The position numbers and the translations under genes are program-made. Source: Syntrophorhabdaceae bacterium (GTDB lineage Bacteria > Desulfobacterota > Syntrophorhabdia > Syntrophorhabdales > Syntrophorhabdaceae). Taken from it: a DNA stretch of 64,000 nt. Below, in pieces: positions 10,710 to 19,115 of this stretch (positions are counted from its first letter, which is position 1; the number at the start of each line of letters is the position of its first letter). The notes beneath the pieces were generated by a model. The model did no database searches. It was given only the letters and a program-made list of their open reading frames with translations, and had not been told where the DNA came from. The stretch lies in the NCBI GenBank assembly GCA_963666485.2, contig CAXXUO010000001.1:1248001-1312000 (forward strand). The letters run 5' to 3'.

Positions 10710-11167
10710 TGCGGTATTCGATCGAGTTTCGTTAATTTAATTTTGGATTCCCCTATCATGTCGAGGGACAGGTCGTCCGGGTAGCCTTCTTCGTAATATA
10801 TCTCGCCGATCCCGGCGTTGATGAGCATCTTGATGCATATGGAGCAGGGCAGGTGAGTACAGTATAATTCTGCCCCGTTTATGGAGACGCCGTGGTATGC
10901 GGCCTGGATGATGGCGTTCTGTTCCGCGTGGAGGCCGCGACACAGTTCATGGCGCTCACCCGAGGCGACGTTCATCTTTTCCCTGAGGCATGTCACTTCG
11001 GCGCAGTGCCTGAGGCCCGACGGTGCCCCGTTGTACCCGCTCGCGAGGATCCTCTTGTTCTTGACGATGACGGCCCCGACGTTGCGGCGCAGGCAGGTCG
11101 ACCTCATGGAAACGATGCGTGCTATCTCCATGAAATAGGGACCCCAGTCAGGGCGGACATTGCTCAT
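10697..11167 (-). CDS. dCMP deaminase family (ComEB-like)
   Basis: STCLRR, GYNG, HAEQNA, PCSIC. Confidence 0.93.
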
Positions 11168-12411
11168 ATATCGTATATTCGTTTATAAAAAGGAAAGGCT
11201 GCGCAGAACTCCCGTACTTTTAGCCGCGTTTTTTCCATGAATGATGGGTTGTCGAGATGCCGCAAGACCTGGTCGATCATCTCGCAGATCATCTCCATTT
11301 CTTTTTCTTTCATACCGCGGGTCGTGACGGCCGGCGTCCCGATCCTTATGCCGCTCGCGATGTTCGGGCTGCGCGTATCAAAGGGTATAAGGTTCTTGTT
11401 GACCATGATGCCGCTCAACTCGAGTGCGACCTGGGCGTCGTTCCCTGTCACGTTCTTGGGGGTCAGGTCGACGAGGAACAGGTGGTTGTCCGTTCCGCCC
11501 GATACGATCCTGAATCCGAGCTCGGCCATGCATTTCGCCATGTGCTGGGCATTCCTGATGATCTGGCGCTGGTATTCCTTGAAATCATCGGTCATGGCCT
11601 GTTGAAGTGCAACGGCCTTTGCCGCGATGACATGCATAAGCGGCCCGCCCTGGATGCCCGGGAAGACTGCGGAATCTATCTTCTTGGCAAAGTCGGCGTC
11701 GCACATGACAAGCCCGCCGCGCGGGCCTCTCAACGTCTTGTGGGTTGTTGTCGTCGTAAAATGGGCGTGCCCGATCGGGCTCGGGTGGAGGCCCGCAGCA
11801 ATAAGGCCTGCAATGTGGGCAATATCGGCCATAAAATATGCGCCGACCTCGTCTGCGATCTCCCGGAATTTCTGGAAATCGATCACCTTGGAATAAGCGC
11901 TTGCACCCGCTATGATCAGTTTTGGTTTTTCCTTGTGGGCGATGCTCCGGATCTCGTCATAATCGAGCATTTCGTCCTTCGCGGATACCGGGTACGAAAC
12001 GGCACGGTACTGTTTACCGGAGAAACTTGGCCGCGCTCCGTGCGTCAGGTGCCCGCCGTGTGCGATGTCCATACCGAGGACGGTATCGCCGGGTTGAAGG
12101 ACGGCGTAAAAGACCGCCATGTTTGCGGATGATCCGGAATGGGGCTGCACATTGGCATGGTCGGCCCCGAAAAGTTTCTTTGCCCGCTCTATGGCAATAC
12201 TTTCGATCTCGTCGAGAAAGGCGCACCCGCTGTAATACCGCTTGGATGGATATCCTTCGGCATACTTGTTCGTGAGGACGCAGCCCTGTGTGGCGAGGAC
12301 ATCCTCATCGACATAGTTTTCCGAGGCTATCAGTATCAGGCTGTATTCCTCACGGTCCAGCTCACGCCTCATCAGCTCGAATATTTTCGTATCTTTCCCG
12401 TCGAGTTTCAT
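11164..12411 (-). CDS. glyA: serine hydroxymethyltransferase
   Basis: [28 protein letters not shown]. Confidence 0.98.
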
Positions 12412-12414
12412 ATC

Positions 12415-12864
12415 TTATCCATTATTATTTTTTTCAAAGGCATCAATCTTGGCTATCCTGCCGCTGTGCCTTCCGCCTTCGAATTCCGCGGAGAGCCAGG
12501 ACCTTACGATCTCTTCGGCGAGACCTTTTCCCGTTACCCGCTCGCCGAGGACGAGCACGTTCGCGTCGAGGTGCTTGCGGCTCTGGACGGCCGTATAGGT
12601 ATCGAACGCAAGGGCGGCACGGACGCCTTTTACCTTGTTCGCAACAACGCTCATCCCCATGCCGGTGCCGCAGACGAGTATCCCGCGGTCGGCCTGCCCC
12701 GCCGCGACAGCTTGAGCGACCTTGAAACCGTAATCAGGATAGTCGACGGACTCGGGGGAATGCGTCCCGTGATCCGTGACCTCATAATCTCCCCCGGCAA
12801 GGAGCTTTTTTATGTATTCTTTCAATTCCAGGCCCGCATGATCGGACCCGATGGCTATCTTCAC
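12415..12864 (-). CDS. rpiB: ribose-5-phosphate isomerase B
   Basis: GSDHAG, DYPD, CGTG, FEGGRH. Confidence 0.96.
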
Positions 12865-14102
12865 CCGCTGAACCTCTTCATGGCCAGGACACAGTTTGTC
12901 CCGCCGAATCCAAAAGAATCGGAAAGAGCGACATCGATCACGTGGTTCCGGGCCTGGTTCGGGACATAGTCCAGGTCGCAGTCAGGATCGGGTGTCTCAT
13001 AGTTGATCGTCGGCGGGCAGACCTGGTCCCTGATCGCAAGCGTCGTGAAGATCGCCTCGATTGCACCGGCCGCGCCGAGCAGGTGGCCCGTCATGGACTT
13101 CGTGGAACTGACGGGAAGCTTGTACGCCCTGTCACCGAAGACTTTCTTGACCGCGAGGGTCTCCGTCTGATCGTTGAGGTCTGTGGACGTGCCGTGCGCG
13201 TTGATGTAGTTTACGGAGTCGGGGTTTAAGCCCGCATCTCTGAGCGCCATGTTGATGCAGCGGATAAAACCGTCGCCGTCAGGGCAGGGTGCTGTTATAT
13301 GATATGCATCCCCGTTGTACCCGTAGCCGACCAGTTCGGCGTATATCTTCGCCCCGCGCGCTTTCGCACGCTCGAGCTCCTCGAGAATGACTATACCGGC
13401 CCCCTCGGCGACAACGAACCCGTCCCGGTCCTTATCGAAGGGGCGCGAAGCCCTCTGGGGCTCGTCATTTCTCGTGGAAAGCGCCTTCATAGCGTTAAAC
13501 CCGCCGACTGTCAGCGGTGTGATATTGGCCTCGCATCCGCCGGCAACCATTATGTCTGCATCACCGTACTGTATGATGCGCATGGCGTCCCCTATGGAAT
13601 GCGCTCCTGTGGCACATGCCGTAACGATCGAAAGGTTGGGGCCTTTCATACCGTGGTTTATTGCGATATGGCCGGGCGCCTCATTGGCGATCAGCATCGG
13701 GATAAAGAACGGAGATATCCGCCCCGGTCCCCTTTCGAGGTACACGCTGTGGTATTTTTCGAGCGTCGGAAGGCCGCCAAGGCCGGTCCCGACGACAACA
13801 CCGGCGCGCTCCGCATCCTCTTTCGCCATGTCGAGGCCGGAGTCGTTCATCGCTATCTTCGTCGCGGCGAGTGCGTACTGGATGAAAAGATCCATCCTCT
13901 TGATCTCTTTGACCGAGATAAATTCATCGGCCTTGAAATCCTTTACCTCGCCGGCTATCTTCGTTTCATGTTGTGTCGTGTCAAATCTGGTCAGCGGTGC
14001 GATCCCCGATTCCCCGTTGAGGATCCGTTTCCAGACATTATCAATGCCTACGCCCAGGGGCGTTACAAGACCGACACCGGTAATGACAACCCTTCTTTTC
14101 AA
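12861..14102 (-). CDS. fabF: beta-ketoacyl-ACP synthase II
   Basis: [27 protein letters not shown]. Confidence 0.97.
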
Positions 14103-14120: not shown

Positions 14121-14363
14121 TTATTTGCCTGCCAGACGGTCTTCTATGTATTTTATCGCATCTCCGACCGTTTCCATCTTCTCGGCGTCTTCGTCCGGGA
14201 TCTCAATGCTGTACTCGTCTTCGAGTGCCATGATAAGCTCAACGATATCGAGAGAATCTGCGCCGAGGTCATCGATGAACTTTGCTTCCGGAACGACTTC
14301 TGATTCGCTTACCCCGAGCTGATCCACAATCATCTTTTTTACTTTTTCGGTTACTGACGACAT
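14121..14363 (-). CDS. acpP: acyl carrier protein
   Basis: DLGADSLD motif; ATG 14363 preceded by AGGAGG. Confidence 0.97.
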
Positions 14364-14447: not shown

Positions 14448-15173
14448 CTACATATACATTCCGCCATTTACGTTTATTACTTCGCCCGTAATATAGCTGC
14501 TCAAGTCCGAAAGCAGGAAATACACCACCTTCGCGACATCCTCAGGCTCACCAAGGCGCTTTAAGGGGATCACCTCGTGTATGGTCTGCTTCATCTTCTC
14601 GTCCAGGATATCCGTCATTTTTGTACGGATGAACCCGGGCGCGACAACGTTGACCCTGATCGACCGCTCTGCATATTCGCGTGCGACGCTTTTCGTAAAC
14701 CCGATGATCCCTGCCTTGCTCGCGGCGTAGTTTGCCTGCCCGGGATTACCCATAACGCCCGCGACCGAAGAGATATTGACTATCGCCCCGCCGGTCCTCA
14801 GCATGTGTTTGACGACCGCCCGGGTACAGTTGAAGACGCTCTTGAGATTGACGCTCATTATCCGGTCCCAGTCCTCTTCCTTCATCCGGACGAGGAGCTT
14901 ATCTATCGTGATGCCCGCGTTGTTCACGAGATTGTCGATCTTTCCCATGTCCTTCGCGGTCTGGTCAATCGCTGCTGCCACCGCCTGGAAATCGGATACG
15001 TCCACATGATAAAAAGAACACCGCCTCCCCTTGCCCTGAATCGCGGCAACAGTTTCGGATCCGTCAATTATATCAAAGATAACTATATCGCTTCCTTTGT
15101 CGGCGAGCATCTCGGCGATCGACCTGCCGATCCCCTGGGCTGCGCCGGTCACGATGGTAACTTTTCCGTTCAT
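14448..15173 (-). CDS. fabG: 3-oxoacyl-ACP reductase
   Basis: TGAAQGIG, NNAGIT, YAASK, NGGMYM. Confidence 0.96.
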   Translation of the reverse strand: MNGKVTIVTGAAQGIGRSIAEMLADKGSDIVIFDIIDGSETVAAIQGKGRRCSFYHVDVSDFQAVAAAIDQTAKDMGKIDNLVNNAGITIDKLLVRMKEEDWDRIMSVNLKSVFNCTRAVVKHMLRTGGAIVNISSVAGVMGNPGQANYAASKAGIIGFTKSVAREYAERSIRVNVVAPGFIRTKMTDILDEKMKQTIHEVIPLKRLGEPEDVAKVVYFLLSDLSSYITGEVINVNGGMYM

Positions 15174-16108
15174 GCAAGGATCCCCTTCGCGGATTCAATA
15201 TCGTCGAATTTTTCCACGCTTATGCATGCGATACCCGGGACGATCCTCTTGACGAGATTGGAAAGCACCTTCTGGGGGCCGACCTCAAGGATGGCCTCGA
15301 TGCCCTCGTCGGCCATTTTCTTGACCGAACGCTCCCACTGAACAGGGGAGAACATCTGGCGGTACAGCTTGTCGTCGACATCCGCCTTCTCTTTGCCCGG
15401 CGTCGCATCGACATTGAACACGACCGGAACGGCAAGATCGCCATGGCTTAAGCCGGCGAGCTCGGTTTTCAGCCGGTCCGCCGCCGCCTTCATGAGAGGC
15501 GAATGGAACGGGCCGGAAACGTTGAGGAAGACGGCCTTCTTGTAACCGGTTCCTTTGAGTTTTTCGACCGCCTCTTTCAAGGCTTCGGCGTCTCCCGAGA
15601 GAACGACCTGTTCCGCTGAATTGAGGTTTGCCGGGACCGCGACGTAATCATCGTGAGATATCTCCGCAAGGACAGGCTCTATCTTCGCCATGTCGGCGCC
15701 GATCAGGGCCACCATCCCGCCTTTTCCCTTCGGGCAGGCCTCTTCCATGAGCAGGCCCCTCTTTCTCGTGATCGCGATAGCCTCTTCAAATGTGAAGAAC
15801 CCGCTTGCCGTAAGCGCGGTATATTCGCCGAGGCTGTGGCCGGCAACGAGAGCGGGTACAAGCCCGGTCTCTTTCTTTAAAACCTGGTAGACGGCATAAC
15901 TTACGAGAAGAAGGGACGGCTGGGTATTGTACGTCTGCCTGAGCTCGTCATCGGGCCCGTTAAAGCACAGGTTTGTGATAGAAGAGCCCAGGACCCGGTC
16001 GGCCGCCGCGAACAGGTCGCGGACGTAGTCGAACCTGTCGTAGAGGTCCTTTCCCATGCCGATATACTGGGACCCCTGTCCCGGAAATACTATTCCTGTT
16101 TTTTTCAT
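15170..16108 (-). CDS. fabD: malonyl-CoA:ACP transacylase
   Basis: FPGQGSQ, GHSLGE, SGPFHS. Confidence 0.97.
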   Translation of the reverse strand: MKKTGIVFPGQGSQYIGMGKDLYDRFDYVRDLFAAADRVLGSSITNLCFNGPDDELRQTYNTQPSLLLVSYAVYQVLKKETGLVPALVAGHSLGEYTALTASGFFTFEEAIAITRKRGLLMEEACPKGKGGMVALIGADMAKIEPVLAEISHDDYVAVPANLNSAEQVVLSGDAEALKEAVEKLKGTGYKKAVFLNVSGPFHSPLMKAAADRLKTELAGLSHGDLAVPVVFNVDATPGKEKADVDDKLYRQMFSPVQWERSVKKMADEGIEAILEVGPQKVLSNLVKRIVPGIACISVEKFDDIESAKGILA

Positions 16109-16164
16109 GCATCCTCACTCGCCGGTTTCAATAAACATTTTCCTCGCGAGATCAGCATCTCACG

Positions 16165-17328
16165 TTATGATCTTTTCTTCTGGGCCGATTGCTTGATAAG
16201 CTCGAGCCCGATAATGTTCCTCTGGATCTGGTTCGTCCCCTCGTATATCTGGAGGATCTTCGCGTCGCGCATCATCTTCTCGACGGGGTACTCTTTCATG
16301 TACCCGTAGCCGCCGAAGACCTGTATCGCGTCGACGACGACCTTCATGGCCACGTCACTGGGAAAGACCTTGCTCATGGCAGATACCTTCGAGAAATCCT
16401 TGGGATTGCTGTCGATATACCTCGCCACTGCATATACGAATGCCCGTGCCGCCTCGACCTGGATCGCCATGTCGGCCAGCATATGCTGTATTGCCTGAAA
16501 AGAAATTATTTTCTTTTCGAACTGCTCTCTTTCACGCGCATACTGTACGGCTGCCTCGAGTGCGGCGTGGGCCACCCCGACCGCCTGCGCACCGATACCC
16601 GGGCGCGTCCTGTCGAACGTCCTCATGGTCAGGATAAAGCCCAGACCTTCTCTACCTATAACATTTTCCTTCGGAACTTTGCAATCCTGAAATACCAGCT
16701 CACGAGTGGCTGATGCCCTGATCCCGAGCTTGTTCTCCTTCTTGCCGAAAGTGAAGCCATCCATGCCTTTTTCAAGGATAAATGCGGTCGCGCCGCGGCC
16801 GCCTTTGCTGCGGTCCGTCATCGCGATCACGGTGTAGATCTCGGCCTCGCCGCCGTTCGTTATCCATTGTTTTGTACCGTTGAGAATATAATAGTCCCCG
16901 TCCTTTTTCGCCTCGGTCCGGATGCCCTGCGCGTCGGAGCCGGCATTTGCCTCGGTGATGCCGAACGCGGCCAGCTTTTCACCGCTCGCTATCAGGGGCA
17001 GGTATTTCTTTTTCAGTTCCTCGGACGCACCAAGGAGAATAGGGTACGCGCCGAGAAGGCTGGCGGCATAGCTCACGGATACGCCGAGGCACGCCTTGCT
17101 GAGCTCCTCGACAACGATGCAGTTCTCAAACGTCCCGCCTCCCGTTCCCCCGTACTCCTCGGGAATGCTGACGCCGAAAAGCCCGGCCTGGGCGCAGTGC
17201 TTCATTATCTCCCAGGGGAACTGCTGGCTCTCGTCGAGCTCGGCCCTGATGGGCAAGATCTTTTCCTCGGCTATCTTGCGCGACAGTTTCTGGATGTTTT
17301 TTTGATCTTCAGATAAAAAATAATCCAT
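16165..17328 (-). CDS. acyl-CoA dehydrogenase (butyryl-CoA dehydrogenase-like)
   Basis: TEANAGSD, NGTKQWITN, KLGIRAS, GGYGY, IYEGTNQIQ. Confidence 0.95.
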   Translation of the reverse strand: MDYFLSEDQKNIQKLSRKIAEEKILPIRAELDESQQFPWEIMKHCAQAGLFGVSIPEEYGGTGGGTFENCIVVEELSKACLGVSVSYAASLLGAYPILLGASEELKKKYLPLIASGEKLAAFGITEANAGSDAQGIRTEAKKDGDYYILNGTKQWITNGGEAEIYTVIAMTDRSKGGRGATAFILEKGMDGFTFGKKENKLGIRASATRELVFQDCKVPKENVIGREGLGFILTMRTFDRTRPGIGAQAVGVAHAALEAAVQYAREREQFEKKIISFQAIQHMLADMAIQVEAARAFVYAVARYIDSNPKDFSKVSAMSKVFPSDVAMKVVVDAIQVFGGYGYMKEYPVEKMMRDAKILQIYEGTNQIQRNIIGLELIKQSAQKKRS

Positions 17329-17331
17329 ATA

Positions 17332-18342
17332 TTATCTCTCCTTGACTTTCTGCATCATCTGGTGGTCCTGCATCGTCTCGTTTATCGATTCCCTGAGGCC
17401 TTTCTCCACGAATTTCTTCGCGAGGAGGATCGCGTTGCGCATGGCCTTTGCATTTGATTTCCCATGGCAAATGATCGAAACCCCGTCAACGCCGAGAAGC
17501 GGTGCCCCGCCGGTCTCAGAGTAATCCGCCTTCTTCTGGAATTCCTTGAAAATGTCTTTCAGGAGGACATACCCGATCTTTGCCTTCAGGCTTTTTTCGA
17601 TACCGTTCCTGAAGAACTCAAAGATCAGGTCCGCCACACCTTCGCTAATCTTCAGTGCGATGTTCCCGACAAAACCATCGCTCACCACGATGTCGGTCCT
17701 GCCGTTGTACATGTCAGTCCCTTCGACATAGCCGAGATAATTGAGACCGAACTCTTTTATCAGGGCATGCGCGTCGCGCGTCAGCTCGTTGCCTTTTGTT
17801 TCCTCTTCGCCGTTGGATAATATCCCGATCCGGGGAGAATCTATCCCCAGGACGGAAGAGGCAAATGCGTTCCCCATCAGGGCGAACTGGGCGAGATGGG
17901 TGGGTTTGCAGTCGACGGTGCCCCCGGCGTCGAGAAGTATGGAAACCCCGTCCCCGATGCGGGGATGGATCGTGGCAATGGCCGGCCTGTCAACCCCCGG
18001 GGTCCGGCCCAGCGTAAAAATGGCGAACGCCATGGCCGCACCGGAATTTCCCGCTGATACCACTGCGTCGACCTCACCCGCCTTGTGCAGCTCGAAGGCG
18101 CGGTTCATCGATGAATCGCGTTTCTTCCGCAGTGCATTGGACGGGGATTCGTTCATTTCCACGCAGACGGGTGTGTGGACCATATCGAGGTTGACCGTGT
18201 CCGTCAGGTGGGGCTTCATTTTTTCGACATCGCCGACAAGAACTATCGATGCGAGGCCATCGCGGGAAACTGATTGTGCACCTTTAACGATCTCAAGGGG
18301 GGCAAAATCGCCGCCCATTCCGTCAACGGCAATCCGTATCAT
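17332..18342 (-). CDS. plsX: phosphate acyltransferase
   Basis: AVDGMGGDFAP, SAGNSGA, DGFVGN, GGAPLLG. Confidence 0.97.
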   Translation of the reverse strand: MIRIAVDGMGGDFAPLEIVKGAQSVSRDGLASIVLVGDVEKMKPHLTDTVNLDMVHTPVCVEMNESPSNALRKKRDSSMNRAFELHKAGEVDAVVSAGNSGAAMAFAIFTLGRTPGVDRPAIATIHPRIGDGVSILLDAGGTVDCKPTHLAQFALMGNAFASSVLGIDSPRIGILSNGEEETKGNELTRDAHALIKEFGLNYLGYVEGTDMYNGRTDIVVSDGFVGNIALKISEGVADLIFEFFRNGIEKSLKAKIGYVLLKDIFKEFQKKADYSETGGAPLLGVDGVSIICHGKSNAKAMRNAILLAKKFVEKGLRESINETMQDHQMMQKVKER

Positions 18343-18544: not shown

Positions 18545-19060
18545 TTAATTTAAGAAAGATTTCAACTTTTCCCCGAGAAGGCTCAAGGGCGCCTCGGGAC
18601 AATCGCATTTTTCACTATTCCTGTTCTTTCCACACTGGGGGCATATGCCTTTACATGCCTCGCTGCACAGCGGCCGCACGGGCATGTCGAGCATCACCTC
18701 TTCATAGATGAACGGGTCGATGTCTATCTCATCCCCTTCATAATAATAGATATCGAGGTCTTCGCCATGGAGCTCGAGCTCGGGCGAATCAGGAAGCGCG
18801 GTGCCGGGCACGAGCTTGATGGACATCGTGAGATCGAGCTCGACGTCGAATTCCTCGAGACACCGCCCGCATTCCAGTGAAGCGGCGACATGCACGGGAC
18901 CGTCTATCGCCACGGTATCGTCGAACTTCGACACCGTGAGCTCATAGCTCACCGGCTGCAGCAGTTTGAGGTCCGTGTCGCCCAGCTGCTTGAATCGCGT
19001 AATATCCATCTCCCCCTTCAGGACCTGTGTGTCTTCAATTTCCGAAAGTCGTAGTAACAA
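18545..19060 (-). CDS. yceD: YceD/DUF177 family protein
   Basis: CGRCL and LCSEACKGICPQCG motifs; upstream of rpmF. Confidence 0.92.
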   Translation of the reverse strand: MLLRLSEIEDTQVLKGEMDITRFKQLGDTDLKLLQPVSYELTVSKFDDTVAIDGPVHVAASLECGRCLEEFDVELDLTMSIKLVPGTALPDSPELELHGEDLDIYYYEGDEIDIDPFIYEEVMLDMPVRPLCSEACKGICPQCGKNRNSEKCDCPEAPLSLLGEKLKSFLN

Positions 19061-19085: not shown

Positions 19086-19115
19086 AATATAAAGAGTTTA
19101 CCGTTTTATTGTCAA
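19086..19115 (-). promoter_or_regulatory. putative sigma70 promoter of the yceD...nusB operon
   Basis: Minus-strand TTGACA-N18-TATATT just upstream of yceD. Confidence 0.55.

Follow-up and report, generated by a model that had tools for sequence, protein, structure and literature searches.

The DNA analysed here, a stretch of 64,000 nucleotides from a Syntrophorhabdaceae bacterium (the window; positions are those of the stretch), contains a fatty-acid synthesis operon in which a gene for a flavoprotein of the acyl-CoA dehydrogenase (ACAD) family lies between plsX and fabD, and it is the role of this ACAD that we address. Gene families were scored against NCBIfam and Pfam models with curated cut-offs. 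All genes of the operon are on the minus strand, and the string between 11164 and 19060 reads yceD-rpmF-plsX-ACAD-fabD-fabG-acpP-fabF-rpiB-glyA (Table 1). The initial annotation of the window had described the order from rpmF to fabF, an ACAD start 3 nt past the plsX stop and the retention of the catalytic YEG motif. All three were confirmed: yceD precedes rpmF, the ATG of the ACAD stands 3 nt after the plsX stop with AAGGAG upstream of it, and the motif is present as I-Y-E363-G. The gap between the ACAD stop and fabD is 56 nt, and the GC content of the ACAD gene, overall and at third codon positions (GC3), is that of the neighbouring genes.

The 387-residue protein scored above the cut-off for the N, M and C domains of ACADs in Pfam (PF02771, PF02770 and PF00441). 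In NCBIfam and Pfam it matched ACAD-type families only, and no match was obtained to the folds of FabI/FabL (SDR), FabK (NMO) or FabV. None of the 22 NCBIfam equivalog models matched by the protein (Bcd, AcrC, cyclohexanecarboxyl-CoA and glutaryl-CoA dehydrogenase among them) was passed, the best being AcrC with 429 bits against a cut-off of 640. A structure model of the ACAD (pLDDT 91.7) gave TM scores of 0.92-0.95 to ACAD structures, the closest solved relatives being Bcd- and MCAD-type CoA enzymes at 45-49% identity. Glu363 and Gly364 were invariant among 59 aligned sequences, and Syntrophorhabdus and Syntrophorhabdaceae are among the named relatives, at 83-94% identity.

Conservation of the locus was examined in 61 genomes of the order, including that of the window (G000, 99% complete). 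A single-copy ortholog of the ACAD with at least 80% identity was detected in 60 of them, full length in 55 and cut or split in five; the one genome without it is 84% complete. At 50 of the 55 full-length matches the locus was inspected, and plsX-ACAD-fabD-fabG was intact in 30/30 and 20/20 of these loci. The linkage is thus conserved among relatives, and the arrangement is not due to chance. In the 20 distant loci the mean identity was 82% for the ACAD, 78% for fabF, 68% for fabG, 65% for fabD and 62% for plsX.

The reported absence of fabH, fabI, fabK and fabV from the window also held. The fabH, fabI and FabK/NMO-family matches of G000 all lie outside it, and FabV was not found in the genome (a search with PF12241, which had no positive control, was repeated with NF010177). 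The fabH of G000, at C3:168537-169523, scored 385 bits against a cut-off of 292 and keeps its Cys, His and Asn motifs; two further KAS III genes fall below the cut-off, and fabZ is present. Throughout the order fabH was above the cut-off in 54/61 genomes, at unlinked sites in all 11 contexts viewed. FabI was detected in 10/61 genomes, FabK above cut-off in none of the 61, and FabV likewise in none (NF010177, a model that was positive in 2/50 genomes from outside the order). Given these counts, fabH is general in the order, FabI is accessory and the ACAD is constant. Nine of the 61 genomes had no reductase candidate of any kind; eight of these carry the ACAD, and of the eight, six have a completeness of at least 90%, the three genomes of family f4 among them. 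In five candidate-less genomes of the order a recheck with the Pfam NMO family gave weak partial matches only, and a recheck of five for SDR proteins gave no full-length member with more than 27% identity to FabI. The broken SDR of G042 was considered as a FabI and rejected, being nearer to FabG.

The position of the ACAD could be read from a sample of 91 genomes of the phylum, in which an ACAD ortholog (E <= 1e-125) was present in 43. Outside the order 26 ACAD loci were retrieved, each of which adjoins rpmF, plsX, fabH or fabD, and 19 of 20 wider loci were fab operons; the exception was G133, with an ACAD-electron-transfer flavoprotein (ETF) set outside a fab operon. The order was plsX-fabH-ACAD-fabD in G138 and G171, and rpmF-fabH-ACAD-fabD in G137 and G170. 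The five best FabK matches of the phylum sample (G129, G118, G153, G148 and G111), all from ACAD-negative genomes, were located directly before fabD, after plsX, fabH or rpmF. Three of these (G118, G148 and G111) read plsX-fabK-fabD, which is the layout of the window with FabK substituted for the ACAD, and the remaining 25 FabK-like loci fetched had no fab neighbour within 1.5 kb. The position of the ACAD is therefore the enoyl-reductase slot, equivalent to that of FabK, and not the fabH slot to which the initial annotation had assigned it. The same annotation had proposed that the ACAD enables initiation without FabH, a role suggested by its place between plsX and fabD in a window without fabH. 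That role is very improbable and largely refuted, as fabH is above the cut-off in G000 and in most of the order, it stands beside the ACAD in G138 and G171, and it is kept in the same operon in 29 of the 51 fab-linked loci of the cross-phylum set described below.

Gene content followed the same pattern. FabI was present in 2/43 ACAD-positive and 12/48 ACAD-negative genomes of the phylum sample. No enoyl-acyl carrier protein (ACP) reductase was recognisable in 22 of the 91 genomes, and 17 of those 22 have the ACAD (17/43 ACAD-positive versus 5/48 ACAD-negative genomes; by family, 12/22 versus 5/33). The Fisher p values for these comparisons were 0.001-0.04, a significance that is overstated, the genomes being kin.

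The enoyl-ACP reductase step completes every cycle of type II fatty-acid synthesis (FAS II). From gene position and the pattern of gene content we consider it probable that the ACAD is an ACAD-fold, ETF-fed enoyl-ACP reductase and the housekeeping enzyme for this step of FAS II in the lineage. Since it is fixed where relatives keep FabK, it probably performs the last step of each elongation cycle. The protein would reduce trans-2-enoyl-ACP to acyl-ACP by means of FAD and Glu363, with electrons supplied by an ETF. This would reverse the reaction usual for ACADs, as happens with CoA esters in Bcd, AcrC and CarC; what we infer here is the reaction direction, the use of ACP as the carrier and of an ETF as the donor, and which ETF this is. 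The FabI of G000 would be a patchy, accessory second reductase. An ETF-linked enoyl reductase in place of FabI/FabK, as proposed initially, is the best supported of the early proposals by position and gene content, and is disfavoured by the lack of an ETF in the operon and by FabI in G000; a normal fabH together with an enoyl-ACP reductase elsewhere was found in G000 but does not characterise the order. The ACAD could instead act at the CoA level, reducing short or branched enoyl-CoA (crotonyl-, tiglyl- or 3-methylcrotonyl-CoA) to primers for a normal FabH, with elongation left to FabI or to an unrecognised reductase. Its closest solved relatives are CoA enzymes, its CoA-entry residues are retained, and it often directly follows fabH where both are present. 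We nevertheless regard primer supply as unlikely: the ACAD stayed with fabD-fabG-acpP-fabF in 50/50 loci after fabH had left, it occupies the FabK position, it lacks the one-residue helix-E insertion of C. difficile Bcd, and 17 of the 43 ACAD-positive genomes would be left with no reductase.

In search of a basic ACP-docking patch, as expected at the substrate entrance, residues were compared between 153 clade members and 24 paralogs. The basic residues K23, R28, R173, K175, R178, K197, R/K236, R303 and K310 were conserved in the clade, and the mean net charge was +0.4 for the clade ACADs versus -4.7 for the paralogs. The small residues Ser84, Ala88 and Ala89 of helix E, placed through MCAD/VLCAD numbering, could permit a deeper pocket. 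In LCAD, according to excerpts of PMC11153573, the residue just before strand 5 binds the CoA phosphate; by secondary structure this position is that of Arg178/Gly179 in the ACAD. As several of the basic positions of the clade are shared with Bcd and one falls at the LCAD site, specificity for ACP or CoA is not separable by sequence.

Similar linkage was observed in other phyla, in a set made of the best 80 of 573 confirmed loci from the genome collection, with members from Nitrospirota, Margulisiibacteriota, Bacillota, Spirochaetia, Edwardsbacteria, Auribacterota and Ratteibacteria. Of these 80 loci, 51 were fab-linked, 37 had etfB and 29 had both. ACADs of fab operons were found in at least three positions across many phyla (before fabD, after fabH and after fabF), and the anabolic role that had been suggested for the ACAD is supported by a linkage conserved both here and across the order. 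Of the 70 genomes outside the order, 50 were searched for known reductases. FabI and FabV were each detected in two of these, the same two Spirochaetia, whose ACAD-ETF genes were not fab-linked in the fetched flank; FabK was above the cut-off in none of the 50, with NMO-like matches in 36 (best 383 bits). The fab-linked ACAD was the sole ACAD in four of five genomes tested, which had been picked for low ACAD counts. These observations bear on the reading that the ACAD is catabolic, serving the crotonyl-/butyryl-CoA step in the degradation of aromatic compounds or fatty acids, and sits in the operon for constitutive expression only. Several ACADs and ETFs occur in the named relatives, which are syntrophs, some loci have no fab or etf neighbour (21/80), and in G133 the ACAD-ETF genes are outside the fab operon. 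We judge such a role distinctly improbable in view of the several fab-operon positions, the genomes with a sole ACAD, the replacement of FabK by position and the presence of a second, distant ACAD in a fab operon of G174.

The G174 gene (C96, L329:8064-9734) encodes a 556-residue ACAD in the order rpmF-ACAD-fabG-acpP-fabF, with plsX, fabH and fabD absent from the operon; G174 is one of the five ACAD-negative phylum genomes with no reductase candidate. Close homologs of this protein in G136 and G169 were not fab-linked in the fetched flank. For close ACAD relatives (64-68% identity) from Verrucomicrobiota/Kiritimatiellia (L106, L120, L122 and related loci), the flank that was fetched contained no fab gene and no etf gene. 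Six of the Verrucomicrobiota/Kiritimatiellia loci share an unannotated downstream gene of 352 residues, and several such genomes likewise had no FabI, FabK or FabV matches.

The history of the ACAD was followed in a FastTree phylogeny of 160 ACADs, left from 177 after removal of 17 near-identical rows. The ETF-less fab ACADs form one group nested among ETF-linked ones. Support was 0.89 for the node with the ETF-linked sister pair, 0.93 for the group without the two rpmF-fabH-ACAD members, 0.17 for the node including them and 0.75 for the ETF-less subgroup without linked fabH. No etf gene was found in the operon in any of the 50 order loci. The fab-linked EtfBs of relatives mostly carry GKQAIDGDTAQVG, and we take the DGDTAQVG motif to be a marker of bifurcating-type EtfB. 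The fab-linked EtfAs of relatives mostly have an N-terminal ferredoxin, as does the ferredoxin-fused CarE described in excerpts of PMC5861303; homology of Etf proteins is no proof of bifurcation, as the same review warns. The ancestral module was probably ACAD-EtfB-ferredoxin/EtfA between fabH and fabD. The linked etf genes would have been lost in one branch, and fabH would later have been relocated in a part of it, two rearrangements by which the ACAD came to appear in the fabH slot. In loci L293, L299, L300, L302-L307 and L338-L340 of this phylum the operon holds an ACAD-ETF trio and fabD is often missing there, while ETF-less forms keep fabD. The displaced fabH of G000 (L008, C3:166516-171308) is divergent from two membrane-protein genes and lies beside a recombinase-like gene (putative labels, from sequence), and a similar neighbourhood recurs in L213, L219, L222 and L229.

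Because the lineage lost its linked ETF, electrons must be borrowed, perhaps from the ETF of beta-oxidation. G000 has four ETF pairs (C4:12397-14225, C8:114867-116654, C6 from 79629 and C1 near 926000-927545) and seven other ACADs (33-45% identity to that of the fab operon), none of them near the operon, and its ACAD would receive electrons from an ETF encoded elsewhere, the nearest by sequence being in a beta-oxidation operon. This nearest ETF (C4; 41-52% identity) reads GKQSTDGNTGVVG and follows thiolase-like and enoyl-CoA-hydratase-like genes (again putative labels); an ETF of its type was present in four of five reductase-less genomes checked. Three further ideas about the ETF were considered and set aside. 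The C4 ETF as a displaced fab-linked ETF was not supported, its group being a sister. A ferredoxin-fused EtfA (G032, G034 and G039) was rejected as the partner: the copy in G032, the one checked, stands before a gene for a CCG-domain Fe-S oxidoreductase, and such an EtfA is missing from G000 and G042. A joint move of fabH and an ETF was dropped, the two being close together only in G032 among the loci viewed. According to excerpts of PMC5861303, the crotonyl-/butyryl-CoA couple lies at -10 mV and butyryl-CoA oxidation by syntrophs needs proton-motive force; from this potential and this cost, a reduced catabolic ETF would be a cheap donor for the ACAD.

Several findings weigh against an ETF-fed enoyl-ACP reductase. 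The FabI of G000 (C1:602451-603209) is intact, above the cut-off and keeps Y-x6-K (YNMMGPVK), and G023, too, combines the ACAD with FabI. An NMO-family match at E <= 1e-15 was found in 52/61 order genomes, several ACAD-positive genomes carry FabK-like genes of 300-383 bits outside the operon, and an ACAD-ETF set stands together with a FabK/FabX-like gene in 4/80 operons of the cross-phylum set. For 21 of the 80 loci of that set the flank that was fetched showed no fab gene and no etf gene. FabX-like NMO proteins may have a reductase role. The genomes compared are kin and thus non-independent data points. In 31/48 ACAD-negative genomes of the phylum sample both FabI and a strong FabK are missing, and in G122 and G124 a fab operon is present but no reductase candidate and no ACAD ortholog; as the reductase inventory is therefore incomplete, arguments from absence are weaker than they appear. 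The ACAD search, moreover, scored only 21 candidates in 14 of the 48 ACAD-negative genomes. The four ETF pairs of G000 are all unlinked to the ACAD and show neither the DGDTAQVG motif nor a ferredoxin domain, and their nearest EtfB branches beside the fab-linked EtfBs as a sister instead of being nested among them. Bcd of C. difficile is also basic at 173, 175, 178, 197 and 310, and the ACAD retains Asp239/Arg242 of the CoA entry helix.

The single strong NMO-family gene of G000 scores as FabX-like, with 224 bits to FabX of H. pylori and 64 to FabK, and FabX is a dehydrogenase/isomerase according to excerpts of PMC8626469. The ACAD might, in the manner of the dehydrogenase half of FabX, oxidise acyl-ACP back to enoyl-ACP and hand the electrons to ETF, either to make unsaturated fatty acids anaerobically or to recycle acyl chains. 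Oxidation is the usual direction of ACADs, carrier-protein dehydrogenases exist in the fold (the RedW, PigA and MbtN models and the prolyl-ACP dehydrogenase 4IRN), and FabX-like genes co-occur with the ACAD in G000 and in the 4/80 operons. We find this improbable, since the ACAD occurs without a FabX-like gene in the three f4 genomes and in others, the reductase gap would stay unfilled, and the ETFs linked to the ACAD in relatives are similar to CarDE, which works for a reductase in the account given in excerpts of PMC5861303.

Further observations concern FabX-like and other lipid genes. In L070, L078, L094 and L116 (three Margulisiibacteriota, WOR-1 or Saganbacteria) ACAD-EtfB-Fd/EtfA is accompanied by an NMO-family gene between acpP and fabF, which is equally near to FabK and FabX and has a C-x2-C-x3-C motif. 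A second lipid cluster of G000 (L007, C1:179598-184888) holds acpP2 (69% identity to AcpP), a methyltransferase, a 715-residue PilZ-domain protein, a KAS III below the cut-off and a FabX-like flavoprotein, and is possibly a c-di-GMP-linked accessory acyl-lipid pathway. The fab operons of G122 (C32, L332) and G124 (C128, L333) come from genomes in which FabI, FabK/NMO, FabV and a fab-type ACAD were not found, and a further reductase of another kind may exist there. Another ACAD of G000 occurs in near-identical copies at C2:344708-345883 and C3:310268-311437 (branch length 0.00), from a recent duplication or as an assembly artefact.

The predicted sigma-70-like site before yceD is the probable start of the operon. 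Only its strength and position are notable, because the promoter-like sites of the region numbered 6 against 4.5 +/- 1.8 in shuffles; a terminator scan gave 10 sites against 7.2 +/- 2.7 expected, an uninformative difference. Downstream, the gene string continued with glyA in 18/20 and rpiB in 16/20 order loci.

Table 1. Features of the fatty-acid synthesis operon in the window
Feature	Position	Strand	Evidence
Predicted sigma-70-like promoter upstream of yceD (TTGACA-18-TATATT)	19086..19115	-	11/12 consensus matches
yceD (DUF177)	18545..19060	-	Pfam PF02620 above cut-off
rpmF, ribosomal protein L32	18349..18531	-	TIGR01031 above cut-off
plsX, phosphate acyltransferase	17332..18342	-	TIGR00182, 358 bits (cut-off 243)
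ACAD-family flavoprotein, 387 aa, candidate enoyl-ACP reductase	16165..17328	-	Three Pfam ACAD domains
fabD, malonyl-CoA:ACP transacylase	15170..16108	-	TIGR00128, 328 bits (cut-off 261)
fabG, 3-oxoacyl-ACP reductase	14448..15173	-	TIGR01830, 322 bits (cut-off 298); 4-nt overlap with fabD stop
acpP, acyl carrier protein	14121..14360	-	TIGR00517 above cut-off
fabF, beta-ketoacyl-ACP synthase II	12861..14102	-	TIGR03150, 665 bits (cut-off 494)
rpiB and glyA, next genes of the conserved string	11164..12864	-	NCBIfam

No description of an ACAD as the enoyl reductase of FAS II was found in the literature searched, whose coverage did not extend to subscription journals. Many strict anaerobes have no recognisable enoyl-ACP reductase, and an ACAD-fold enzyme would fill most of this gap in the phylum sample (17/22). 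It would add a fold unrelated to those of FabI/FabL, FabK and FabV and would tie membrane-lipid synthesis to ETF redox chemistry. To this the locus contributes the ETF-less form, a test across a whole order and the counter-case of a coexisting FabI; the persistence of the enzyme in a lineage without its own ETF makes the electron source a sharp question and offers a one-gene test case. We put forward only tentatively that the ACAD represents a new structural class of enoyl-ACP reductase whose syntroph form has shed an NADH-driven, bifurcating-type ETF and uses the reduced ETF of beta-oxidation. If so, lipid synthesis would be a free sink for the high-potential electrons of the crotonyl-/butyryl-CoA couple (about -10 mV) and would spare NADH, whereas syntrophs otherwise spend proton-motive force on disposing of those electrons.

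Among known systems, the ACAD is most likely similar to Bcd and CarC in chemistry and to FabK in pathway position, and a member of neither group. It shares with Bcd-EtfAB (C. difficile 5OL2, A. fermentans 4L1F) the fold (TM 0.94, 49% identity), the catalytic YEG and a basic loop at 173-178, and Bcd works in vivo as an ETF-fed enoyl-thioester reductase according to excerpts of PMC5861303. Bcd, however, serves energy metabolism, where it acts on crotonyl-CoA together with a bifurcating ETF of its own, whereas the ACAD belongs to a fab operon, has neither a linked ETF nor the helix-E insertion, and shows FDRTRP in the entry helix where Bcd has LDGGRI. Downstream of the ACAD in relatives come etfB and an etfA fused to a ferredoxin, which matches CarDE of the caffeyl-CoA reductase CarCDE (6FAH; excerpts of PMC5861303), and the acryloyl-CoA reductase AcrC-EtfAB supplies the best-scoring NCBIfam model, albeit below its cut-off. 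The ACAD differs from both in that etf genes are missing from the operon of the window lineage and its substrates are probably bound to an acyl carrier; a linked etfB-etfA of bifurcating type was not found in that lineage but occurs in many distant relatives. The carrier-protein ACADs RedW, PigA, MbtN and 4IRN indicate, by model and entry names, that the fold takes ACP- or PCP-bound acyl groups, but they catalyse oxidations of secondary metabolism and are less closely related, with 81-257 bits and no score that reaches its cut-off. With FabK, enoyl-ACP reductase II, the ACAD shares the position before fabD in relatives, the flavoprotein nature and presumably the reaction. FabK is an FMN TIM barrel that uses NAD(P)H directly, as described in excerpts of PMC8626469, whereas the ACAD has an unrelated fold, binds FAD and would need ETF.

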